NCBI GenBank assembly: GCA_963755915.1
Contig: CAVWLP010000002.1
Coordinates: 2,720,001-2,784,000 of the forward strand
Direction of reading: 5' to 3'
Length of the DNA stretch: 64,000 nt
From: an uncultured Phycisphaerales bacterium
GTDB taxonomy: Bacteria > Planctomycetota > Phycisphaerae > Tepidisphaerales > Tepidisphaeraceae
Part shown: positions 12,800-27,240 of the stretch, piece after piece
Numbering within the stretch: the stretch's first letter is position 1
Layout of the letters: every line of letters begins with the position of its first letter
Notes under the pieces: generated by a model
What the model was told of the DNA's origin: nothing
Seen by the model: the letters and a program-made list of their open reading frames with translations, nothing else
Database searches by the model: none
Position numbers and translations under genes: made by a program

Positions 12800-15700
12800 T
12801 CAGGCTTTTCGCCGGCGACGTGCCAGCAAGCCGGTCGCGCCCATCGCCAGCAGCCCAAGCGTGGCCGGTTCCGGCACGGCGGCGATCGTCGGCGCGGGTA
12901 GCCCGTTGGCGGCCGCGAAGGCGTCGAGCGCCTGCACGTCTGCCGGCGTGACCGTCACGGCAGCGCCGCTGTCTCCCTGGCCGAAGTTGGCCGCCAAGGC
13001 GCTGAAGTCCGAACCGTTGACCGACGAGCTATACAGGAAGTTCCCCTGGTCCCAGTTGGTGAGGCCGAGGCCGAAGTTGGCGGCCAGGATCGAGAAGTCG
13101 GAGCCGTTGACGGTGCCGTCGAGATTGGCGTCGCCAAGCAGCGTGTACTTCAGTTCGATCTCGCCGCTGCTGAGGCCGGCGACGGCGCCGGTCTTGTCGT
13201 TTCCGTCGGCCCAGCCGATGCCGTATTTCAAGTTATTGGTGAGCGTCTGGGCAGTGCTGGAAATAATTCCGGTGGTTCCGTTCCAGCCACCGTTGTTGAA
13301 GCCGGCCTTGAGGTAGCCAAGAATCGTGCCGATCGGATCACTGCTGCCGTAGTCGATGAAGAGATGGTTGTTGGTGATGTCCAACACGCTGCCCGAGGCA
13401 ATCGTCAGCGAGGTGATGTTGATGTTGCTGAGGTCATGGGTGGCGTTGTTTGCAACCCAGCCACTGCCAGCCGAGGTGTTGCTGGCGAAGACGACGTTGC
13501 CGCCGTTGATGGCCAGGCTGCTGGTGGTGAGGCCGACGCCGAGGGTAAGGGTGCTGGTGTTGCTCTTGGTGAATCCGCCGGTGGCGACAATCAGGCCGCC
13601 GCCGGTGATGGAGTAATTGCCGGAGCTGTTGACCGTGACCGAAGCGGGGCTGACGGTGCTGGCCAGGGTCACGAAGTAGTGACCGGCGTTGGTGTCGTTG
13701 AAGGTGACGGCGTCGCCATTGGCATAGGTCGTCGCGGCTGAGCCGTTGTTCCAGTTCTGGTTGCTGGTATCCCACGTGGTGCCATTGCCACTGCCGCCGG
13801 CATTATCCCAGAAGACCGCCGTCGGCCCGGCGGCAACCACCAGGTCGATGAATCCACTCTGCACGGTCGTGCTGAGAGAAACGGTGAAGCCTGGCACGGA
13901 AGGTAACGTGAAGTTGGAAAGGGTCGGGCTGGTAGCGCCGTTCAGATCGAACAACTCATAGTCGCCCGCCTGCGTCGGACCAGTGCTGAACTCGATCGGC
14001 GTTCCGGCGCTGGCCGAGAACGAGCCACCGCCACTGATAATGATCAGATCTCCGTTGTCGCCGCCGAGCTCTGGCGTGCCCAGATCGAAATCGAACGCCA
14101 TGTTGCTGTTGGCGGCGAGTCCGCCGACGGTCAACGTGCCGACCGGTCCGATTCCACCAGGCGCCACGGTGCTGGCGCCCGATCCGGCCTTGACGATTCC
14201 GGAGATAGTGCCGTTGCCTGCATTGGGAGCGGCCGCGGTGACGTAGTCGATGGATGTGTCCGTGCCGGGGTTGATCGGCAAAGCCAGTTCGGTCAATAAG
14301 GTCGAATTAGCGCTGGCGAGCACGCCGCCGTTGAGGGTTACCGTGCCCGAGCTCGTCGCCGAGCCCGAGTTGTTGGCGATGACGAGGGTACCGGCGTTCA
14401 GCGTGGTATTGCCGCCGTAGTTATTGAAGTTGGCAAGGACCGTGGTGCCGGTGCCGGTGTAGGTCACCGTATCGGCAGCACCACCGCCGCCGTCGGACAT
14501 GTTCTGGGCGAGGGTGATGTTGAACCCGCCGTTGTTGACGGTCAAGCCGCCGGAGCCGACGACAAAGCTGAACTCATTGGTGATGTTGAGATTCGGATTC
14601 GAAAAATAGGGCATGAAGGGCGTGTAGCTCACGGTGCCGGTGGAAACGTAGACGTCGCTTGCGCCTGCGGTAATCGTGCCGCCGTTGACGGTCAGGGCGG
14701 TGCCCGAGGCTCCGCTGTTGTTGGAGAAGGTAAAGCTGTTGGCCGTCAGCGTGGGGCCTGCCGAAGAGGTTCCATTCAGCGTGACGCTGGTTCCGGTACC
14801 CGAGGTGGTGGTGGAATCGTTGTTCAACTCGAAGTTTCCGCCGGCCGTCATGGTGCTGGTGCCGTTGAGGGTGACGTTGATGTTGACGTCGTCGTCGGCG
14901 GCATTGCCGACGCCGAGCGTGATTCCATCCACACTGCTGACGTTCGCAGTGTTGTTCAGCGTGAGGTTGAGGGTGGAGGTGCCGTTATACCGGCCGATCA
15001 GGAAGGCGGACGCGGTGTCACCGCTTGCGATCGACCCGGTTCCCGAAACCACCACGTTTCCGCGGGTGAAAATGTAGACCTGTGAAGCGGTGCCCGTGGA
15101 AGTGCCGGTGAGGTTCAGGGTGGAGCTGGTGTTGCTGGTTCCGGCGCGGAACTGTCCGCTGCCGGTCACGGAGATCGTGCCGCTCAGAGTTCCAGATCCA
15201 CCGGCGGCGACGTCTTCAAATTCGGCGGAGCCCGCACCATCGGTGATCGCGTTGGAAAGGGTCACGCCATTGCCCAGCAGGAGTCCCTGGGTGGTGTTGT
15301 CCGTGATGGTGCCGCTACCGACGCCATTGGTTTGATTGACGATGACCTGACCACCAGTGATCGTCAGTCCGCCCGAGAATGTGTTGAGGCCGCTGAGCGT
15401 TTCAGTGCCAGTGCCGCTCTTGACGACCGACATGGTGCTGCTGTTGGAGTTCTGGATGACTCCGCTGAAGGCGTTGCTGTTGTTGTCGCTGCCAAAGCTG
15501 AGCGTATTGACGGCCGAGGGGGCGTTGACGTTGTCGATCACGCCGCCTCCCGACAGGCCGCCGAAGGTGGCGTTGTTGCCGTTGAGGTCGAGCTTTGTCG
15601 AGCTGCCCATCGTCAGGTCGCCGGTGCTGTTCATGGTGGCGCCGGTGGCCAGTTGAATTTCGCCGTTGGTGAGAGCGACCGTGCTGGCGCTGTTGGCTCC

Positions 15701-18700
15701 GTTGAGGGCGAGGGTTCCGGTGCCGAGCTGGGTGAGGCTGCCGGTTCCGGACACCCCGATGGACTGATTCGTGCTGGTGTCCATGATCAGCGCCGGTATT
15801 TGGGATGATGGCGGTGCTGGTTCCCAGCGACCCACTGGCGCTGCCCGTGCCCACTTGCAGCGTTCCACCGCTGAGGGAAGTGGGGCCGCCATAGCTGTTA
15901 TTGGCGGTGAGCAGCACGGTTCCCGCGCCACCGCTGTTGACGCTCAGGCCGCCGCTGCCGCTCATCGCGCCGCCGATTGTCAGCGTGCTGCCGGAATTCA
16001 TCACTGTTACCGACGCATTGCTGGTCAGGTTTATGGGGACGTTGATGGTGTGAGAGCCCTCACTGTCGGTCACCAGCGCCGAGGCGGTGCCGTTGTTCTG
16101 GAGGGTGAGGGTGCTGCTATTCGCCTGGCTGATGGTGTATGAGAAGGCGTTGGCGAAGGACATCGATCCGACGGTTTCGTTGGCGTTAAGCGTGACGGTC
16201 GAATTGGCGGTGATGCTGCTGCCGAACGTCACTGAACTTCCCACCGCGTTGGGAATGCCGTTGGGATTCCAGTTGCCGGCCAATGCCCAGACCCCGCCGC
16301 CGGTGAGGGCCCAAACCGAAGCGGTGCTGCCGCCGGTGATCGTCAGGTCGATTACGCCGCCATTGTCAGTGAAGGCATAATTGGTCGCGCCGCCGGGACC
16401 GTTTGGCACCGACAGGTTGGAGAGCCCACTAACCGTTCCCGTCACATCCATGATGGCATAGGTGCCGTTCTGGGTGAAGACGTTGCCGGTGCCATCGACA
16501 TAGGCATCGAGACCTGCGCCGCTGGCGATCGTGAGATTGCCGTTGACGTCGATGAAGCTGTTCGCGCCGAACCGAACGCGTAGTTCAGGATCGAGCCGGA
16601 TTTGAGGCCCAGGGACCCGATGCCCAACGTCCCGACAACCGGGCCGTTGGCGATGGGATCGCCCGGGGTGAGGAAGCCGCCGGAATTAACGGTGACTGCG
16701 TTGGGCAGCGAGGTTCCAACGCCGGCGAGAGTCCCACCGCTGTTGACGATGATGGCTCCCAGGCCCGCCGGCCCGGCGGTCGCCGATCCTGCCACATCCA
16801 ATCGGAGCGTTCCGTAGTTGACGTTTGTCTGACCGGTGTAAGAGTTGGTTGCGCTGCTCAAAATAACAACGCCATTGCCGTTCGTGGAGACGTTTGGGGC
16901 AATGGTGCCGTTTGTGGGATTGGCTTCGTTGGTAAGAAAACTTCCATAGCCGATGTTCAGGGGACCGCTGCCGGTGATAGCTCCATCAATCGTGAGAGTA
17001 TTTCCCCCAGAAGCGACGAGACCGCCTCCTTCGGCGCCGAGGCTGACAGGCCTGGGTGCACCGCTGTCGATATTTCCCGTGTAATCGGCGACGAGGGTTC
17101 CACCGTTCAGGAAGACGTTCGCGACCGTCGACGATTGGGCGAAGGCAGTGCTGTAAGTTCCCAGGGCCGTACCTTGGGCATAGTTACCGAGAATCGTCAA
17201 ACCGCCGTAAAGATTTATCGGAAGGTCGATGGTGTTGTTGGGCCCAGCGGCTTGGGCGTTGAGTTCAACGGTACCGGGTCCGGCCTGCGCGTAGCCGCCG
17301 GATCCAGCGCCGGACGTTCGAAGTCCGCTGTTGAAAATCAGCGCTCCCTGAGTGTTATATTGATAAACGGTGATATCTCGTGTGCTTTCGGTTCCGCCCA
17401 CTGTTGCAAAGGCGGAAGTGAGCATCGCAGATCCCGCGTCATCGGCGAACACAACATTGTTCGCACCAACATTTGGAGTGATAAGGATGGCGCCCGGTTC
17501 GATTGCCTTGCCAGTCTTGGTAATGAACTGGTCCATGTTGTTGCCGTCAAACGTGTATTGCCCGCCTAGCGGGGTATTAAAGCGCAGGCTCGTCATGGTG
17601 GAGGTTCCGCTAATGCGGACTTCACCCGCGACGGAGGGCATGTCCTGATTGCCACCGGTTATCGTTTGCGAAGCATTTTGGGGAATGGCGGTATAGAAGC
17701 CGGAAATCGTGGAGCCTCCGACGACGGCGCCATTGGAGGCCACCGCCGCAAAGTCGACGACATGATTGGGATTTCCGGGCTCACCAACAACGGCAAACGG
17801 CACCGCGCTAGCGCTGTCGACCAGAATACCGCCGGAACCCACATTGGTGCTGCCAACGGTGATCGACGCCGTTGCGGCGATCGGACTGGCACTGCCGGTG
17901 TTGAGCCCGTCGCCAGTGGTGGCCGGGCCCACGAAATCGATCAGGCCGCCCGCGTTGGTGCTGGCGGTGTCCACCGAGATCGTGCCCAGGTTCAGGGTCG
18001 GAATTACCGAACCATTCTGGTTCACCTGCACGACCGTCATGCCTTCGGAGGCGATCAGCGAGGTAGCCGCGAAAGTTTGTGCGTTGGCCGTGGCGCCGGA
18101 GGCACTGTTCATCAGCAGCGTTCCACCGCCCAGGCGCAGGCCGCTGAGTGAAGAGGAAATGATGTTCGAAGCCGGGGCGCCCGCCGCGGCGAAGTTCAGT
18201 TCGAGTGTGCCGCTGTCGACGGTGGCGGTGCCGCCGAGGCTTGCCGTCGAGTTGATGATGGTGGTTCCCGAGCCAAGTTGAGCGATTGATCCGGTGTTAC
18301 TGTTGTCGTTAATGGCGCTGTTGACGTTGGTAGTGCCTGAGCCGCTGAAGCTGAGCGTGACGCTGGCCGCCCCAAAGCCCACGCCGTCGTTGATGTTCAG
18401 TGACTGCGGGGCGCCGACGGTGAAGGTGTTGTTTTGGGTCATCGCCAGCGGATCGTTGATCGTGAGGTTCTGATTGCCGGAGACGCTGATGCCCGAACCG
18501 TCGAGGGTGAGCGTGTTGGAGTCATCGGTGCTGTTTCCGATGACCACCGCCGCGCCGGGGTTAATAACCGAGATGCCTTCCCACGCGGTGCTTGCGCCGA
18601 GCGTGAAGGTCGTGGTGGAACTCAGGTTCGCGTTGCTGTCCCATTGGGCGATGTCGGTGGAGCTGGGCACATCGACGCCGGTGTTGGCAGGAACCGTTTC

Positions 18701-18877
18701 GTCGATCCAAGACGAGGCGACGTCCAAAACCGTATTGCCGTTGTTACCGTAGGTGTCCGCCCTGGACACCGCGGCGAATGCAACCAGGCTGGTTGCCGCG
18801 GACAGGGCCGCGAGCGTGCGCTGATTCTTTGAACTCGTAAAAGACGAATACTTCCGCGCGGAACGATTGCCGTTCAT
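12800..18877 (-). CDS. ~2000-aa surface protein: autotransporter-associated beta-strand repeats, dockerin-like domain, PEP-CTERM anchor (frameshifts near 16570 and 15800)
   Basis: Signal peptide; repeated G.GT..L...N.Y.G.T motifs; LLGDANLDGTVNGSDF..LAANFG; terminal VPEPATLGLLAMGATGLLARRRRKA. Confidence 0.9.
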
Positions 18878-19319
18878 CACAGACCCTCCGGGCTGGGGTG
18901 CGCAGAGCACAAGCCGCGCACCGCGGTTAGATTGTGGAAAAACTAGAAACGCCTCCGAACTTCACGCTTTCGATCGCGGGGAGAATTTGGACATGTACTT
19001 CTCCGCCTGACCTTCACGGAACATACACCAGTTTTCCAGAACGAAAAGAGAATGCTGTCACCGAGATATGAACTTTTGTCACAATTCTCAGAATTCCTAG
19101 CATTAGTTGCGGAAAATCATGATAATTCTTCAGGTTTATCGGACATATCCTCGTCCATTTCGCTCGGCACGCCAGTCCGTGGGAGGAGTTTGCACAATTA
19201 AATGCAACAAAAATGGAAGATCACAGGCAATTGTACCTGCGACCCGGTGGGCTGGCCGCTTTTCGGTGTACTTTGGTGACTCGCGCTATTTTGCGAACCC
19301 GTCAACCGGAATGCCCTAT

Positions 19320-22300
19320 TTATGGGGCCATAATCTCGAGCTTCACAGGCCCGCACAGCCCCGAAGGCAACGGCTCGAACAGTGCCGCCTTTGCGGGGTT
19401 GAACCGCGTCCCATATTCCTCCGAAACGCCCCGGTAGTCGTAATTTGGAAAGCCGTGGCCAGCCAGGTAATTCACAGCGGTATTGCCGACCTCAATTTCA
19501 ATCTGATTGTCGCCCGGCTTTAGCAGGTCTGTCACGTCGAGGCGGTAGGGGGGGCACCAGACGTCCCCGGCCGGCTTCCCGTTGATCGCCACCGTCGCCC
19601 CATCCCGCACCGGGGCGTCATAGTCCGCCTGGAATCCCTGCATTCGCATCGTTGGCATTGGCGAAGGCGATCCGTCGCCAAAATCGAGCACCACCCGCCC
19701 GGCGGCAATCTGATCGGCGCTGATCGTGAAGTGTTTGTCATAAGTCGCCACCCCCGAGAATCCAGCCGTCGCCGGATCATCCGCCCAGGAGTGCAGCGCC
19801 GCTACCGGCTTTGGCTTTCCATTCCCCAGCGCAACTGTCCATCCCGAATCCAGCTCGATTGGCTTCCCCACTGGCTTGCTCGCCGCCGCCGGCGTTTCCA
19901 GCCGATTGCCAAACAATAAAATCGTCGATCCATACGGCGCAAGATCCAGACGCACCGTCGTGTAATTCTCCAGATGTGCCACAATCTCTACCGGCGAAAC
20001 CGTCCCGCTCACCGGATCCATCGCGTCCACCGACATGGCATCGGTCCGGAAATTCGCCGACACGCTCACCGGCGTATTGCCCGTGTTCGCCACGAAATAT
20101 TCCGTCCCCCCCTCAGTGGTTCGATGCACCACGCCAATCTGCGGCGACGCTGGCGTAAACTGCACGTCCGGCCTTACGTGCTTTTGCCCCGCCATCACCT
20201 TTGCAAACTGGCTCTCATCGGCGATGAAAATCCCCGGCGCGTCCTTATCCGTAAACAGCCGGGCAACGATGTTCTTCACCGTCTGCTGATCCGAATCCGT
20301 GGCCAGGTATCCCGGCGCCTTATCCGGCAGCCGGCGGGTCGCGATGATCGTTCCCCCGCGCGACGCAAAATCCTCCAGCTTCTTCAGCGTCGAAACCGGA
20401 ATCCGTTCCACGCCCGGCAGCACCACAATCCTGAACCGAACCCCCGTCGCCCGGCTCCCCCGTCCCTGCGACGCCTGCCCGAAAAACAGCGACCCGTTAT
20501 CCACCCGCCCCCGCGCATTGAGCATCCCATCATCAAAGAAATCCAGGTTATATCCCGCATCCAGAATCTGCCCGATGATCTGATGCCCCACGCAATCCGC
20601 CAGCAGGTCCGTCAGCGCCACCTTCCCCGGCGTGAACCGCGCCCACGCATCGTCGTTCGGCAGATAAAGCGCAACGTCATTCGACGGATATCCTTGCCGC
20701 AGCATAAAGCTGACCCGCTGCATATACCGCGTCACGTCCGGCATGACGATGTTCCACGGATTCTGCGAATTAAAGACGCCCCCGACATAAAAACTCCATC
20801 CCGGAAACGCCACGCCGGGCGGTGTATATGGCCACCCATGACACACAATCTGGTTATTCCCCTGCAAAAAATGCACATCCGCGTTTGCCTTGATATCCAG
20901 CGGCGTGGCCCGGAAAACCAGCGAGTGAATCCACGTAAACGTCTCCGACGAACAGACCGGCACGCCCATCAGATGACACGCCGACGTCGCATATCGCGCC
21001 GCCGCGTAATCGTGCCAGTGATAATCCTCCCCCTCCGGCAGATTCACACCTAGATAGCTATAAAGCCCCGCCGACGGCGTCCCATACGCCTGAAGCCGAA
21101 ACCGCGTGCCGTGCTTGTCCGCAAATGCCCGAAGCTGCTTGACAAAATAATCGTTGAACAATTCCGTGAGCGTCTTTCCCCAGTCATGCCGAACCTCCAG
21201 CGTCTTGGGCCCATCGTCTCCCACCAGCGCCGGCAGGAGCGGCGCCAGGTCATATCCGCGCCGCTTCTTAAACTCCGCCAGAAAATTCGTCGTCCAATCC
21301 TCTCCATAACTCTCCAGGCTGTCGCAGAAAACCGAGTAGGGGACATTCGTCCCGCACGCGTCGACTTCCTTTTCCGCGATGGTCTGTAAAAATTTCTGCA
21401 CCGCCGCGGGCGACTGATGATCCACCACCAACCCCTCCGCCCCATACGCCGGCCGCTTCACCTTCATCCCCGTATGGCTCGCGAGAAAAAACGTCACATC
21501 CGAAACACTCGGCTGCGTGGCCGGCACCTGCGCCGCGCCATCCTTGATCTGAAGCTCCGTTCCACGATTATCAAACGCCGCCATCACCACATCCCCCTCG
21601 CGCAGCTTTGGCGTTATGCTGGTTTCCCCATCCGCCACGGTCACCTTCTGCGTCCGCAACCTCCCCGCCGCATCCTCCACCCCAATCGTCGCCCCCCCAT
21701 ACGGCCAGCCGCTCCCCAGCGTCAGGTCCATCCGCATCCCCAGATCCTTCGCCTTCCCCGCCACAAACCCCAGATCATCCAGAAATTCCGGCGACAGAAA
21801 CTTGATGTTCACCACCCCCGGAATCTCGTTATCCAGTGCCAGCGGATAGACCGGCTGTACCTCAAACCCCCCGAATCCGTTCGCTTTCATCGTCTCGATA
21901 TCCTTCTCCAGCCCCGCCTTCGTCACCGCCGGCCCAAACCACCACCACCGCACGATCGCCCGCGAATCGTCCGGCGGATGGGCAAACGCCGCCGCCAACT
22001 GCTGCGGATCCGCCAGCGCCGCGACCTTGATCGGCGCCGCCCCGTCAAGCCCCGTCCCCGAGACATTCTGCGTGCTCAAATACGGCCCCAAATATCCGCT
22101 GACATTAATATTATTGAGCGTCACATTGCTCGCATTCGCCAGCGTAATCCCTTTCCGGCACCTCCCGCTGATGTTCGACAGCGTCAGCCCGTCGATCCAT
22201 TTCCCCGGCGGCACCCGCCCGCCGTCCACCAGCGTATTGACGTCGACCTTCACGTTGCTGAACGAAATGTCCTTCGCATGTGGCACCCCGGTTTCCCCCG

Positions 22301-23293
22301 CCACCGGATCGATCCCGATGATGCCGGTGTCCCGCAAATCAATCCCCAGAAACGTCCGCGTCGAAGCGTTGAAATTCTCTCCGTGAATATTCTCAAAAAA
22401 TCCCCCGCGCCGATCCGGCCCTTGATGAAAATCGCGTTCTCCCCATCCGTAAAATCGCAGTTCTCAATCTGCACGTCGCGAATCCCCCCCGACATTTCTG
22501 ACCCAATCCCAATCCCCGCAAAATCGCTGGCAAACGTGCAATTTCGGATCAGCACATCCGCCGTCGGCCGCGCCGATTTTACCGCGCTTATTCCCCGCCC
22601 CGACTTCAGCGAAATGCAATCATCCCCGGTATCGATATCGCAATTCTGAATCAGCACATGATCCGTCGAATCCACGTCAATCCCATCCCCGTTCGAAAGC
22701 GTCGTCCGAATCGTCAGGTTTTCCGCCACCACGTTCTGGCAAAACAGCAGGTGAATCGACCAGAGCTTCCGATACCGATCGGTAAAGCCATCGAGCAAAA
22801 CATTTTTGCAATTCGTCAGCTCCACCATCACCGGCCCGCGCGGCGTCCGCAGGTTTCCGATCTTCATGTCCCCCTGAATCGTCCCCGGGCCGATGATCGA
22901 AATATTCTCCGCCCCGTCCGCCCAGATCAGCGCATGATGCCCCGGCACCATTTCCCCCTCGAATCGCACGGTGGTCATCGGATAATCATTCGCATCCGGA
23001 CTCCCGACGATCGTCGCCCCTTTCTCCAGGACCAGCGTCGTATTCGAATGTAGTTGAATGCTCCCCACCAGATATTTCCCCGCCGGCACGTCCACCGTGC
23101 CTCCGAGCGCCCCGCACGCGTCCAGGGCCTTCTGGATCGCGGCTGTGTCGCTGGTTTTCCCATCTCCCGCCGCGCCAAATTGCCGTACATCGTATTTCCC
23201 TGCCGGTTTTGCCGCCTGGTCCGCCCGTACCGACCCGGCAAACCAGGCAACTGCCACGAGAATTGCCGCAAATTTCAGGGGTTTAATTGCCAT
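19320..23293 (-). CDS. GH28 polygalacturonase-like plus GH106 alpha-L-rhamnosidase-like fusion protein (frameshift near 22390)
   Basis: Signal peptide, DVRQFGAAGDGK.SDT.AIQKA, NGDGID, GDDCI, GIGSE (GH28); then PPDDSR..VRWWW.G, GFGGFEVQP, DLTLGSGWPYGG, DSLE and SETFTW (GH106). Confidence 0.85.
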
Positions 23294-23317
23294 TCGTTTT
23301 ATCCTCGCTCCGAATTG

Positions 23318-23327
23318 GGTAATTTCC
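23318..23327. promoter_or_regulatory. Candidate LacI operator GGTAATTTCC (also at 24579, with variants at 25819, 25865, 25949)
   Basis: Near-palindromic 10-mer repeated exactly upstream of both LacI genes; GGTAATT occurs three more times upstream of the pilin gene. Confidence 0.5.
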
Positions 23328-23378
23328 ATAGGGTGGCAATTCATGAAAATTTCGTCAAGTATGATATAATCCCCCGCC

Positions 23379-24422
23379 ATGTCGATTAGCACAGTCGCCA
23401 AGCTCGCGGGTGTTTCCACCTCCACAGTTTCACGCGTCATTAATAACCACCCCCGCGTCGCCCCCGAAACTGAACGCTCTGTCCGCAAGGCGATGCAAGA
23501 GCTCGGCTACACCCCCTCCGACCGCCGGCCTGGTCCAAAATCCGCAGGACGACTAAAGACGGAAAAAAAACGGGCCGCGTTCCTGGTCCTCGGCGCCTCC
23601 GGCCAGCAGGCCACTCCCGCTTTTGCAGGCCTTCTTCGCGGTGTTTCCCTTGGTGGCGCCGACAACGGAATGGACATCGCCTTCCACTTTGTCCCTGACC
23701 CCGACGAAATTTCTTCCTGGATTCTCGACCAGCGAATCGACGGCCTGCTCCTCCACGGCACCCGCCCCAGCGGTGAAATCGAACGCCGACTCCGCAAAAT
23801 TCCCACCGTCTGGCTCATGGGAAACCGCCGCCGGCCCGACTGGGGCGACCAGGTCATGCCCGACAGCTACGAAATCGGACACCTTGCCGCGGAATACCTC
23901 GTTTCCCACGGCCACCAGCGGCTGGCATTTTTGAACCTCGACGCGGGCTTCTGGCCCTTCCGTCTCTATTGCCAGAGCTTTTCCGCCGCCGCCGCGGACA
24001 AATCCGTCTCCGTCGTTACCGTTGAGCAACCGCTCGAGCAATCTCCCGACTATTGGCACCGCCACAGCCAGCGCGTGGTGTCAGACCTGGTCGAGCGTTT
24101 CATGGCAATTTCCCCGCGTCCCACGGGAATTTTTGTTGCCGACGACATGCAGGTCGCCGTCCTTCAGCCCGCGCTTCAGTCCGCCGGGATCCAGATCGGC
24201 CCCGGCCAGACGCAAATCATTTCCTGCAACAACGAAGCCCCGTTCCGCGTCGGCCTTTCCCCGAAGCCCGCGGCAATAGATATCCGGGTCGAATCGGTTG
24301 GCCGCCGCGGCGTAGAACAACTCCTATGGCGCATGACCCACCTGCACCTCCAGGAACGCCTGATCTGCGCCGTAGAGCCGATGATCGTCGATTTCGACGC
24401 GCCGCAGCCGCAACCCACATGA
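23379..24422 (+). CDS. LacI-family transcriptional regulator (copy 1)
   Basis: VAKLAGVSTSTVSRVIN HTH plus periplasmic-binding-like core; TGATATAAT -10 box 8 nt before ATG. Confidence 0.93.
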   Translation: MSISTVAKLAGVSTSTVSRVINNHPRVAPETERSVRKAMQELGYTPSDRRPGPKSAGRLKTEKKRAAFLVLGASGQQATPAFAGLLRGVSLGGADNGMDIAFHFVPDPDEISSWILDQRIDGLLLHGTRPSGEIERRLRKIPTVWLMGNRRRPDWGDQVMPDSYEIGHLAAEYLVSHGHQRLAFLNLDAGFWPFRLYCQSFSAAAADKSVSVVTVEQPLEQSPDYWHRHSQRVVSDLVERFMAISPRPTGIFVADDMQVAVLQPALQSAGIQIGPGQTQIISCNNEAPFRVGLSPKPAAIDIRVESVGRRGVEQLLWRMTHLHLQERLICAVEPMIVDFDAPQPQPT

Positions 24423-24498
24423 TCCCAAAGTGCCGCCGGACTTCGGCGAGCTCGGTCGAGCCGTGCCCCACCGGCGAATTTTCCCCAGCGAATTCCCC

Positions 24499-24554
24499 TT
24501 TCACACATTTTCCCACTTTTTCACACTTTTCAAACCTTTCGCACCTTTCACACC
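24499..24554. repeat. Imperfect 9-10 bp tandem repeat TTTCNNACN x6
   Basis: tttcacaca/tttcccact/tttcacact/tttcaaacc/tttcgcacc/tttcacacc. Confidence 0.75.
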
Positions 24555-24676
24555 TTCTTGCCCCCACCCCTTCCGCGCGGTAATTTCCCCCTCTTACCAC
24601 CAATATTTGCCACGAAAATAGTGGAAATTGCAAAGCCTTCGTGCGATAATGCCCCCGCACCTATTCGGAGCCCAAA

Positions 24677-25732
24677 ATGTCCCTGAATCGAGTCGCGGAA
24701 ATGGCTGGCGTATCCGCCTCCACCGTGTCGCGCGTCGTCAACGACCAGCAAGGCGTCGCGCCCCAAACCGCAGAGGCCGTTCGCGAGGCCATGCGAAAAA
24801 TCTCCTTCTCTCCACCCGCACGCCGAAGGGCACGCAAATCCACCAACGGACACGGCGAGCAAGCCAAGACCGTCGCCTTCCTCATCTTCGGAACCAGCGG
24901 CGAGCAAACCGCCCCCGCATTCACCAGCCTTCTCCGCGGCGTCTCCATCGCCGCCCGCGAAAATAATTTCGACCTCTTCGTCAGCTTCGTCTCCAACCCC
25001 GATGAGCTCCCGCGCCGAATCTCCGAGCAGCGCGTCGGCGGGCTCCTCCTCCACGGCGAGCAGCCCAGCGAATCCGTCCAGTCCCAGCTCCGCGGCCTGC
25101 CCACCGTCTGGCTCATGGCCAACCGCTTTCCACCGCGCTGGGGCGACCAGGTCATGCCCGACAACTCTTCGATCGGCCGCCTCGCCGCGGAATACCTGCA
25201 CGCCCACGGCTGCAAATCCGCGGCTTATCTCAGCGCCGCCCCGCGGTCCTGGGGCCTGCAGGTGCGCGAGCTCGCCTTCTGCCAATACATGGCCGACATC
25301 GGCGGACACGTCCACGTCCTTCGCGCCGCCGTCGAATCTCCCCCCGACTTCTGGCAATTCGACGGCTCTGCCGCCCGCGCCCTGACCGAGCAATTCATCC
25401 GGCTTGACCCCCGCCCGCAGGGCCTCTTTCTCGCCGAAGACCGCTACGCCCCGACGGTCTACACAACTCTTGCCGCCAGCGGCATCGCCCTGAACAACAA
25501 CGGCGGCTCCCCCAATAACAGCTCATCCGGCGAAAACGCCGTCCGCGTCATCTCCTGCAACAACGAAATGCCCTACCTTGATCGCCTTCACCCCACGCCC
25601 GCGACCCTGGACATCCGCGCCGAAAGCATCGGCCGCCGCGGCGTCGAACAGCTCATCTGTGCGCTGGAACATCTCACGACCGTGGAGCGTATCCGTAAGA
25701 TGGTCGAGCCCATTCTCGTGGAACCTCAGTAG
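24677..25732 (+). CDS. LacI-family transcriptional regulator (copy 2, paralog)
   Basis: VAEMAGVSASTVSRVVN; shares PAF..LLRGVS, GLLLHG, PTVWLM.NR, WGDQVMPD, ISCNNE and GRRGVEQL with copy 1. Confidence 0.93.
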   Translation: MSLNRVAEMAGVSASTVSRVVNDQQGVAPQTAEAVREAMRKISFSPPARRRARKSTNGHGEQAKTVAFLIFGTSGEQTAPAFTSLLRGVSIAARENNFDLFVSFVSNPDELPRRISEQRVGGLLLHGEQPSESVQSQLRGLPTVWLMANRFPPRWGDQVMPDNSSIGRLAAEYLHAHGCKSAAYLSAAPRSWGLQVRELAFCQYMADIGGHVHVLRAAVESPPDFWQFDGSAARALTEQFIRLDPRPQGLFLAEDRYAPTVYTTLAASGIALNNNGGSPNNSSSGENAVRVISCNNEMPYLDRLHPTPATLDIRAESIGRRGVEQLICALEHLTTVERIRKMVEPILVEPQ

Positions 25733-25748
25733 CGAAGCATATTTCCGT

Positions 25749-25803
25749 TTGCCTATTGCCTATTGAATGCCCAAATAGGCAATAGCAAATGGGCAATAGG
25801 CAA
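25749..25803. repeat. Palindromic heptamer-repeat element (GCCTATT/AATAGGC)
   Basis: TTGCCTATTGCC (25749) pairs with GGCAATAGGCAA (25792); further GAAATCT heptamers at 25877-25902. Confidence 0.75.
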
Positions 25804-25993
25804 TCACCGACGAATTCTGGTAATTGCAGAAAGCCGCTCCGCGAACTATCACCCAAAAGTATGCGGTAATTATCCACAAATCTGAAATCTGAAATCTCAA
25901 ATCGTTATTAAATAGCATCTTGTATTAAATGCATTCTCCCACGCCTGTGGTAATTCCCATGAAAATAAATTGCGTTAATCATGCCGAATTCTA

Positions 25994-26023
25994 TTGCAAG
26001 TTTGGCCATATCCGGTGTAATAT
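25994..26023 (+). promoter_or_regulatory. Sigma70-type promoter of the pilin-like gene
   Basis: TTGCAA-N18-TAATAT. Confidence 0.45.
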
Positions 26024-26160: not shown

Positions 26161-27240
26161 ATGCTTCGTCGCAAAGCGTTTACACTCGTAGAATTACTCG
26201 TTGTCATTGGCATTATCGCGATTTTGATTGGGATTCTCCTTCCGGCGCTTCAGAAGGCCCGCGCCCAGGCGCGACTCGTTCAGTGTGCTGCCAACGAACG
26301 CATGATCGGCCAGGCGATGATTAACTACGCCTCCGATAACCAAGGCTATCTACCCGAGCACGCTTATTCGGACATCCCTTATCGAGGACTCGAAGGCGCT
26401 ACCGACGTGATGCAGGATGGAATTGATGACTATAACTACCTAGTACAAGACGGGAACGGACAAAGCCATGGCCTTAACCTCGCCGTTGGCGGCATTCAGG
26501 ATACCGGCGCGAATATCGGCCGGCTCATCATGTGCGGTTACCTGGGACATTATGATCTTTCGCCGGCCAACGGCCCCAACAATATTGGAATTACGTCCTT
26601 TGCCCCCTTTCGCTGGTGCCCTGCGCAGGACCAATTCTCCCAAGAGGCAGGCCTGCAATCCTCTTATTATATGAATCCACATTGGTCGTATACCCGCGCA
26701 TCCAATCCCAGTCCGCCCTCTAGCCCAAACCAGCCCAATCCGGGCCAACCAAACATTGTCTACACGGACACCACTGGGACCGCAGTTCACGCTGCGTGGT
26801 TTCGCAAGATTTCTGATTACCCGCCCCAACTAGCCATGCTGACAGAAATATACTTCTATCCCTATAAATACGGCGGCTCCAGCACCATCACCCATCCCGG
26901 CCCTGGCGGGACCTCTTATTGGAACATTCTGCTGCCCGATGGCCATGTTGCGACGGTCAATGACAAATGGTTAATCCAAAAGTTCAACACGTCCGCAGCC
27001 AGCTTATCGAACCAAATAAACAGCGGCATAGGCAACCAGCTGACCGATTTCGACGACGCCCTCGACATACTTGAGACGGAAGCCGACGGCCGCGTCCCAT
27101 GCAATGGCTCCAAATCCTCCATGGCACTGCCGGGATATGCGCCCGCCTCTTTTGCTACGCCGTGGTACAACCGTTGCGTCCGTTACCCCAGCGAAAATGT
27201 TGGATCAAGCTACATTGGTCCTACGACCTGGCAATATTAA
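26161..27240 (+). CDS. Prepilin-type N-terminal cleavage/methylation protein with H-X9-DG tail (DUF1559-like)
   Basis: [35 protein letters not shown]-terminal [18 protein letters not shown]. Confidence 0.92.

Follow-up and report, generated by a model that had tools for sequence, protein, structure and literature searches.

The subject of this study is a four-gene region in a 64,000-nucleotide stretch of an uncultured Phycisphaerales bacterium (contig CAVWLP010000002.1, positions 2,720,001 to 2,784,000; below, the window), by its named relatives a member of the Tepidisphaeraceae (Phycisphaerae), made up of a divergent hydrolase gene, two genes for LacI-type regulators, lacI-1 and lacI-2, and a prepilin-type DUF1559 gene. 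The canonical hinge of both regulators is replaced by a basic linker, and an odd palindrome centred on a single A/T pair recurs upstream of the genes of their relatives. We consider it likely that the two proteins are local regulators in which a basic arm has taken the place of the hinge, that their DNA-binding heads stand closer together on this odd palindrome, and that the lacI genes are autorepressed. At the level of sequence the correlation between protein and operator is real and well supported; binding itself we infer from it.

Two LacI proteins without the canonical hinge

LacI-1 (347 amino acids; gene at 23379..24422, plus strand) and its 44% identical paralogue LacI-2 (351 amino acids; 24677..25732, plus strand) both carry the LacI helix-turn-helix (HTH; PF00356, 64.2 and 47.9 bits against a cut-off of 27) and a periplasmic-binding-protein-like C-terminal core (PF13377, above cut-off). 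A structure model of the LacI protein matched RbsR (9ny7) and PurR (1jft) as the top Foldseek hits, with E about 1e-20 and 20-24% identity. The recognition helix is TS-TVSR in LacI-1 and AS-TVSR in LacI-2, and the linkers are YTPSDRRPGPK (codons at about 23508-23540) and FSPPARRRARK, the former containing a 6-residue insertion relative to RbsR, CelR and PurR.

That both proteins lack the canonical hinge and have basic Pro/Arg linkers had been proposed in an earlier note on this DNA, and it holds well beyond the window. Among 120 close homologues, 117 of them with a parsed HTH, RPGPK was present in 115/117 and RRPGPK in 102/117, while the canonical YPAL hinge (YxPxxxAxxL) and RGRP were each found in 0/117. 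Clade representatives at 50% identity were taken as the best 150 of those matching, of which 132 could be parsed: YPAL occurred in 0/132, at least three K/R stood in the linker of 116/132, RG[PR], GRP or RPG in that of 92/132, and RGRP in 2/132, with forms as various as RRPGPK, RRRGPR and RRRARK. The clade profile matched 778 representatives (50%-identity clusters) at E up to 1e-30, 46/141 genomes of the family at E up to 1e-40, and 11/251 genomes sampled across the phylum at E up to 1e-30; distant members were present in Kiritimatiellota and Sumerlaeota records, and one cultured host of the clade is Fontivita pretiosa. In a FastTree phylogeny of 145 rows, which were gathered by likeness to the query and are biased to its relatives, 105 basic-linker rows were set apart by a branch with support 100, and LacI-1 and LacI-2 shared one subclade (47 rows, support 100). 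These comparisons support the assignment of both proteins to a LacI clade, common in Tepidisphaeraceae, that lacks YPAL and whose basic Pro/Gly linker is conserved.

The paralogues differ at residue 197 (window 23967-23969), which is Tyr in 113/120 LacI-1 orthologues and Arg in LacI-2 and in 134/150 clade representatives. LacI-1 Tyr197 aligns with an Arg of RbsR, which we take to be the equivalent of the sugar-binding Arg197 of LacI. Since Tyr197 replaces an effector-cleft Arg that is kept in LacI-2, the two proteins probably respond to different signals while sharing their sites; the effector of LacI-1 may be different or lost, and a LacI-1/LacI-2 heterodimer is conceivable.

Two further loci with such proteins were observed. 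At G000:C2:3745686-3749333 a third clade member, frameshifted and of the TA-TVSR type, has TGTAA repeats upstream at a 10-bp period and adjoins a DUF1559 gene whose promoter carries sites; at G000:C3:264147-266622 a DUF1559 gene with four matches to the motif is transcribed divergently from a basic-linker LacI (YSLPTVRRGPK), and PEP-CTERM genes follow.

An odd palindrome as candidate operator

The motif was derived outside the genus of the window, from the 200 nt upstream of clade members less than 70% identical to LacI-1; the 51 regions were reduced to 46 after removal of shared 22-mers, and to 45 when one own-genus region (L012) was dropped. Unconstrained de novo expectation maximisation (EM) gave TYnRTGRWAWTTnC with a log-likelihood of 220, against 68-75 in 3 shuffles. 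The half-sites TGRWA and TWNCA stood 1 nt apart, with a TG...CA span of 11, in 20/45 regions (shuffle mean 0.3, maximum 2), while the canonical spacer of 4 nt (span 14) was found in 0/45; the 1-bp spacer was also present in 5/8 held-out regions of partner LacIs. In palindrome-constrained EM the odd widths 11/13/15/17 scored 128/147/150/168, and the even widths 12/14/16/18, at 101/115/144/147, remained below the neighbouring odd ones. The resulting candidate operator is the 13-mer RTGNAA-W-TTNCAY, whose centre is A/T in 82% of the weight of the position weight matrix (PWM), and its monomer unit is RTGNAAWTT. When the best half is oriented to the left, the two T after the centre are more conserved (1.59 and 1.28 bits) than the distal CA (0.8 and 0.4 bits). 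Extra units occur in direct repeat, with a period of 10 in 9/45 and of 11 in 5/45 of these regions, which belong to proteins with xS-TVSR helices (shuffle maximum 2); in the xA regions a direct period of 10 was seen in 5/40 (shuffle maximum 1) and periods of 21-23 in 3 each.

The AATT-centred operator of the earlier note is accordingly kept in part: the site is free of CG and A/T-centred, but it is an odd 13-mer around one A/T pair and not an even palindrome. GGTAATT and CAYGAAAAT, which had been treated as two separate words, both belong to the one half-site-plus-tract unit RTGNAAWTT.

The motif was also looked for farther away. Among 14 held-out loci from other Planctomycetota families 7 could be parsed and 3 scored at least 11, two of these being near-identical. 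Five VS-TVSR LacIs from metagenome contigs (L158, L160, L162, L165 and L169; 25-29% identity), with the linker PxEKRKG[IV]RK, have a 13-mer upstream as in the xS clade, with scores of 13.3-16.0. In four relatives strong sites (18-20) lie far from the lacI start (L043 378-524, L044 3690-3847, L047 1305, L052 6139) and are candidates for further targets.

Association of the motif with the basic-linker proteins

With the out-of-genus PWM the held-out window regions ranked 12 (lacI-1) and 19 (lacI-2) of 4956 upstream regions, and with a 20-column PWM the lacI-1 region ranked first of 4956. A score of at least 10 was reached by 13/16 own-genus lacI-1 regions and by 6/8 out-of-genus partners; with the new PWM it was reached before 1/14 YPAL LacIs of the family, in 4.6% of all upstream regions of the genome and in 9.7% of the A/T-rich ones. 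De novo EM on 18 same-family YPAL LacIs, run as a positive control, returned AAnCGnTT, and the method therefore finds the canonical motif where it is expected. Furthermore, the third base of the half-site follows the recognition helix: RTGTAA occurred 0.07 times per region for xS-TVSR proteins (43) and 1.82 times for TA-TVSR proteins (11), RTGGAA 0.77 times and not at all, respectively, which fits the role published for those two residues (PMC2978694).

The prepilin genes show the same association. In out-of-genus clade loci 8/13 had an upstream site of at least 11, against 6/56 prepilin genes of the window's own genome; without one region shared with the training set the count was 7/12, and the Fisher p values of 3e-4 (8/13) and 9e-4 (7/12) come from kin that are not independent. 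Of the 26 DUF1559 genes examined in the own genome, the three with at least three sites were those beside basic-linker LacIs. With the 12-column matrix, PEP-CTERM upstream regions of this genome were not enriched (5/99 against 6.3 expected), DUF1559-like ones counted 4/26 against 1.7 expected, and the top genome-wide matches were mixed, unrelated genes among them; on these counts the regulon looks local.

Within the window the repeated words were recovered where they had been reported: GGTAATT at 23318, 24579, 25819, 25865 and 25949, GGTAATTTCC at 23318 and 24579, CAYGAAAAT at 23342, 24611 and 25958, and GGAAATTGC at 24623. GGTAATT has 9 matches window-wide (shuffle mean 2.96; 0/100 shuffles reach 9), while CAYGAAAAT alone is not significant at this scale (3 against 1.17; 11/100 shuffles reach 3). 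Lack of enrichment over A/T-rich intergenic DNA had been named as what would speak against the proposal; the three intergenic regions (767 nt) contain 5 copies of GGTAATT, where such a background (regions of at least 52% AT, by our own gene calls) predicts 0.18 and the remaining intergenic DNA of the genome 0.08, and 3 copies of CAYGAAAAT where 0.018 are expected. The words were chosen after the sequence had been seen, so these p values overstate, and independent support comes from the out-of-genus motif.

Predicted operators and promoters in the window

The best site of the window (score 15.1, out-of-genus PWM) is the predicted main lacI-1 operator ATGAAAATTTCGT at 23343..23355, with an auxiliary unit GTGGCAATT in direct repeat 10 bp upstream (23333..23341, plus strand). 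The block RTGGCAATT-S-ATGAAAAT was kept before lacI-1 in 11/11 aligned genus sequences. The exact repeat at 23318, a weak 13-mer GGGTAATTTCCAT (23317..23329, score 11.7) that the first reading had emphasised, did not prove to be a conserved operator: it is common only to the 97%-identical relative L031, and is not kept in 10 other aligned genus loci. The predicted lacI-1 promoter, ATGAAA-16-TATAAT at 23343-23370, has its -35 hexamer inside the main operator and an extended -10 (TG-A-TATAAT, 23362..23370, plus strand, a consensus match only) 8 nt before the lacI-1 ATG, and the mRNA is probably leaderless or nearly so. Five aligned relatives resemble the window in this apparent lack of a leader, while in five more the same operator is followed by a leader of 50-60 nt that contains a ribosome-binding site.

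Before lacI-2 the predicted operator GTGGAAATTGCAA (24621..24633, score 14.7) coincides with the -35 hexamer (24622) of a predicted promoter, TGGAAA-17-GATAAT, with an extended -10 at 24645-24650; RTGGWAATTG was found there in 9/10 aligned genus sequences. An auxiliary unit GCGGTAATT lies at 24577..24585 (plus strand), where relatives have CTGGAATT in the alignment.

The putative DUF1559 promoter, TTGCAA-18-TAATAT (25994..26023, plus strand), is matched in relatives by TTG-17/18-TAwAAT/TAATAT, although a stricter scan does not list it. Upstream of it stand a distal site CTGGTAATTGCAG (25817..25829, score 10.1; about -206, at the same position in L035), a unit GCGGTAATT (25863..25871, plus strand; about -160), with GTGGTAATT, ATGGCAATT or GTGAAAATT at that position in 5/6 aligned relatives, and the paired units GTGGTAATT and ATGAAAAT (25947..25966, plus strand) with a 12-bp period, centred at -76 and -64. 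GTGGTAATT-NNN-RTGRAA was present before DUF1559 in 6/7 aligned genus sequences, and a unit at -75/-76 in the window, L034, L035 and L093.

Proposed mode of binding

In the mechanism that we propose, each headpiece would read TG-N-AA through its TVSR recognition helix, as canonical LacI proteins do, the Arg of TVSR recognising the G of TG. A basic Pro/Gly arm without fixed structure would stand in for the hinge helix. With no leucines to insert at a CG step, the DNA would not have to kink, and the two heads could stand 3 bp closer, on straighter DNA, and occupy the odd palindrome RTGNAA-W-TTNCAY. The arm would leave helix 3 at the position of the hinge and most likely enter the narrow minor groove of the AAWTT tract, and the flexible linker would also permit in-phase direct repeats at 10-12 bp.

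Several observations weigh against this explanation or weaken its support. In an AlphaFold2 model of LacI-1 residues 43-57 have no helix and the confidence score (pLDDT) falls below 50 at 51-60; this is weak evidence from a single model without a control, and canonical LacI hinges are also unfolded when off DNA. The arm is without an RGRP core, and two arms sharing one 5-bp minor groove would be sterically awkward; such crowding may explain the one strong and one weaker half per site, as well as the direct repeats. The DUF1559 region of the window ranked only 218 of 4956; own-genus lacI-2 regions reached a score of 10 in just 3/10 cases; none of 7 own-genus DUF1559 upstream regions reached 11, with the 9-bp unit in 5/7; and 16/45 training regions have no site scoring at least 10. 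The site abuts TTGAC in 15/29 out-of-genus cases, where its flank is part promoter sequence. The TA-TVSR set was picked after inspection and comes mostly from one subclade, and sequences from kin are not independent of one another. Finally, because the xA set has no clear peak at the 1-bp spacer (3/42, shuffle maximum 3) and few wider members match (15/70 regions of the wider basic-linker clade reach 11 with the xS matrix), the odd palindrome is, on these sequences, a property of the xS subclade.

Direction of regulation and alternative explanations

Because the predicted operators cover the -35 hexamers of both lacI promoters, negative autoregulation and cross-regulation by occlusion are supported by the promoter geometry. 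The arrangement at the prepilin genes is different. In the window all sites lie upstream of the DUF1559 promoter. Those of out-of-genus prepilin genes, whose promoters are guesses from the consensus, stand at -40/-51, -41/-94, -59 and -71/-82, which like -64/-76 of the window are roughly helically phased, and further at -94 and -100, mostly with non-consensus -35 hexamers; they fall inside or after the promoter in 2/8 (L054 -29, L127 +12), and also at two own-genome paralogue loci. Such phased positions upstream of a weak -35 hexamer are those of activators, as in CRP class I/II. LacI-family activators exist, for instance FruR of Vibrio cholerae (PMC10287919). Activation of the DUF1559 promoter from the upstream sites seems to us an even matter; occlusion or anti-activation at this promoter is quite possible, and looping or CytR-like anti-activation would look much like activation.

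The alternative that survives best, which we hold to be a serious one if short of an even chance, is that all sites repress, whether the proteins cover an UP element, form a loop from -206/-160 to -76/-64, or act as anti-activators like CytR. The majority of LacI proteins repress, and in the window the lacI operators do sit on the -35. Among the out-of-genus lacI sites, 15/29 scored ones are centred 6 nt before TTGAC/TTGCG/TTGAT-16/18-(-10), at about -41, and so precede near-consensus TTGAC-16/18-RATAAT promoters, which should need no activator; CytR is known to work by anti-activation (PMC3454398). The upstream, phased position of the prepilin sites argues against repression throughout, and no partner site, such as that of CRP in the case of CytR, was identified, in an analysis that made no systematic search for partner sites.

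It is also possible, but doubtful, that the operators are real and the basic linker is a phosphate binder or a flexible tether as in CytR, with recognition of the AAWTT centre left to the heads or to DNA shape. The A/T tract persists while the linkers vary widely (RRPGPK, RRRGPR, RRRARK), the linker has no AT-hook match, and the half-sites are close enough for the heads to cover the centre. On the other side, RPGPK is near-invariant in LacI-1 orthologues while the following residues drift, RG[PR], GRP or RPG recurs in 92/132 representatives, and conservation is higher at the two T behind the centre than at the distal CA.

A functional dyad that is even (AATT centre, TGNWA-AT-TWNCA) or everted (TTNCA-TGNAA, suggested for EbgR-like operators) is improbable. 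The site at 25947 and ATGGTAATTACCAC of one relative do fit a 2-bp spacer, CytR uses 2-3 bp spacing, and EM on the xA regions gives an everted consensus; in the xS set, however, a spacer of 2 was found in 2/45 regions against 20/45 for a spacer of 1, and no everted spacer exceeded 2/45. An even 14-bp palindrome, RTGRWAATTWYCAY, was the first model tried and was ruled out by the spacing test and the palindrome-constrained EM. A scan with the even palindrome matched 49 of the 141 family genomes, with and without the regulator, and was uninformative; of 20 matches inspected many lay inside open reading frames (ORFs).

It is very unlikely that a different, global factor uses the motif, or that the motif is part of an A/T-rich promoter (an UP element with its -35) and stands before these genes by chance. 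Sites often abut TTGAC, a score of 10 is not rare in upstream regions, above all A/T-rich ones, and unrelated genes are among the top matches; yet YPAL LacIs of these genomes are not preceded by the motif, the half-site base tracks the recognition helix, a TG...CA dyad of fixed spacing is no promoter feature, and PEP-CTERM upstream regions are unenriched.

Beyond the likely explanation given at the outset, a wider reading can be offered tentatively: a clade of planctomycetes and neighbouring phyla might use a third LacI mode of DNA binding, in which a 9-bp unit is read by the HTH and a minor-groove arm of RRPGPK type on unkinked DNA, in helically phased arrays, with upstream activation of DUF1559 prepilin genes and self-repression.

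Genes of the locus

The GH28-GH106 hydrolase gene (19320..23293, minus strand; PF00295 and PF17132) is divergent from lacI-1 and its product is predicted to be secreted. Its GH28 part is rhamnogalacturonidase/galacturonidase-like and its GH106 part an alpha-L-rhamnosidase; the nearest NCBIfam models of the two halves, BT4155/BT4153/BT4146 and BT4145, all below cut-off, are models of Bacteroides rhamnogalacturonan enzymes. In this assembly a frameshift near 22250-22340 interrupts the ORF; the fusion first described is nevertheless sound, being a single ORF of 1293-1395 amino acids in 6/9 relatives examined. The gene adjoins lacI-1 in 10/10 genus loci (L031-L040). Of the targets proposed at first, autoregulation and the link to the prepilin gene are supported, while control of the hydrolase, suggested by the shared 85-nt intergenic region, is weakly supported and would be the weakest target; a minus-strand promoter consensus match at 23385-23358 would place the lacI-1 operator over the hydrolase start site. 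Judged from this divergent gene, the signal is likely a pectin (rhamnogalacturonan-I) sugar. The supposed pilin gene (26161..27240, plus strand) is indeed prepilin-type (TIGR02532 above cut-off), and encodes more exactly a DUF1559 protein (PF07963 and PF07596).

At 12800-18910 the window contains a large PEP-CTERM protein with autotransporter-type repeats, in three ORFs through frameshifts; in L031, L034 and L035 homologous parts lie behind the hydrolase gene. Many further window genes are split too, consistent with indel errors in the assembly. Between lacI-1 and lacI-2 (24490-24575) there are imperfect short repeats of TTTTCACAC/CTTTC type with a strong pyrimidine skew, at a position where relatives have unrelated inserts of varying length. 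Directly after lacI-2 (25735-25810) short inverted repeats of GCAATAG/CTATTGC and GGCAAAT units are probably a terminator or a small repeat element. In one metatranscriptome, contigs from relatives (below 95% identity) overlap each lacI gene in part and also the beginning of the DUF1559 gene; that search used 5% of words, and the contigs show neither start sites nor strand and thus are no evidence of expression.

Comparison with known LacI systems

About 60% of LacI/GalR proteins have YPAL and about 40% do not, and its absence goes together with different DNA ligands (PMC3875437); that hinge loss is tied to loss of the central CG was known already (PMC2329647, PMC3875437). Odd palindromes make up 4% of the operators of 1303 LacI factors, and 49 factors have another central pair (PMC4052901); Planctomycetes do not appear in the text or two supplements of this survey.

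Our proteins have the fold, the TVSR helix and the TG-NAA half-site of canonical YPAL LacIs (PurR, RbsR, CcpA, LacI), in which the TVSR Arg reads the G of TG (PMC2978694) and of which CcpA has the consensus TG NAAR CG NWWW CA (PMC2329647). Unlike these they have no YPAL and no CG; where TGNAAN-CG-NTTNCA has four central bases, the predicted operator has a single A/T, and its TG...CA span is 11 instead of 14.

E. coli CytR is also without the YPAL motif (PMC3505978) and binds half-sites TGCAA, with the consensus TGCAA-N2-3-TTGCA, inverted or directly repeated at variable distances (PMC3454398). Linker and flexible arrangement of half-sites (here inverted with spacer 1, and direct with periods of 10-12) are alike in the two systems. 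Nevertheless, LacI-1 and LacI-2 are not CytR orthologues (NF008269, 48.5 and 42.6 bits against a cut-off of 436), and here the 1-bp spacer is fixed in the xS subclade and the RRPGPK arm is conserved.

EbgR-like LacIs of lactic acid bacteria (LacR, GalR, RafR) share with our proteins the odd palindrome with A/T tracts and the absence of hinge Ala/Leu and of a central CG (PMC2329647). Their operators, TTT-AGT-AAA, have a central C/G, in contrast to the A/T centre with TG...CA outside found here; their insertion lies before helix 3 and ours in the linker, and orthology is again not the case (NF007665, 33.8 and 39.8 bits against a cut-off of 330).

The linker was also compared with the AT-hook, to which the earlier note had likened it. 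AT-hooks and related arms, RGRP in HMGA and RGR in H-NS/Lsr2, enter the minor groove. Like them, our linker is a short Arg/Pro/Gly stretch beside an A/T tract; unlike an AT-hook, RRPGPK has no second Arg, and neither 25-residue linker matches any Pfam family at E up to 10, in a search whose HMMER filters drop weak matches. The suggestion of a LacI subfamily with such a linker thus stands as regards the distinct clade and its conserved basic Pro/Gly stretch; with RGRP so rare, the linker is better called AT-hook-like than an AT-hook, and its minor-groove role is presumed.

PDB searches returned DNA complexes for PurR, RbsR, CcpA, LacI and SghR and none from this clade, and a literature search, outside which most subscription papers lay, found no paper on the clade, on the 1-bp-spacer geometry or on an AT-hook-like LacI linker. 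The principle of a hinge-less LacI is known; the clade, its conserved arm and its 1-bp-spacer operator appear undescribed.

The clade provides a sharp protein-operator pair for the study of DNA binding by YPAL-less LacIs: a canonical half-site, set 3 bp closer, and a basic arm. It may also supply LacI-type parts for synthetic biology whose operators avoid cross-reaction with lacO. With the motif, regulons can be reconstructed also for polysaccharide loci of planctomycetes and for DUF1559 genes; if the third mode of binding proved true, a recognition code would connect many DUF1559 genes with their regulators and with the sugars that induce them.

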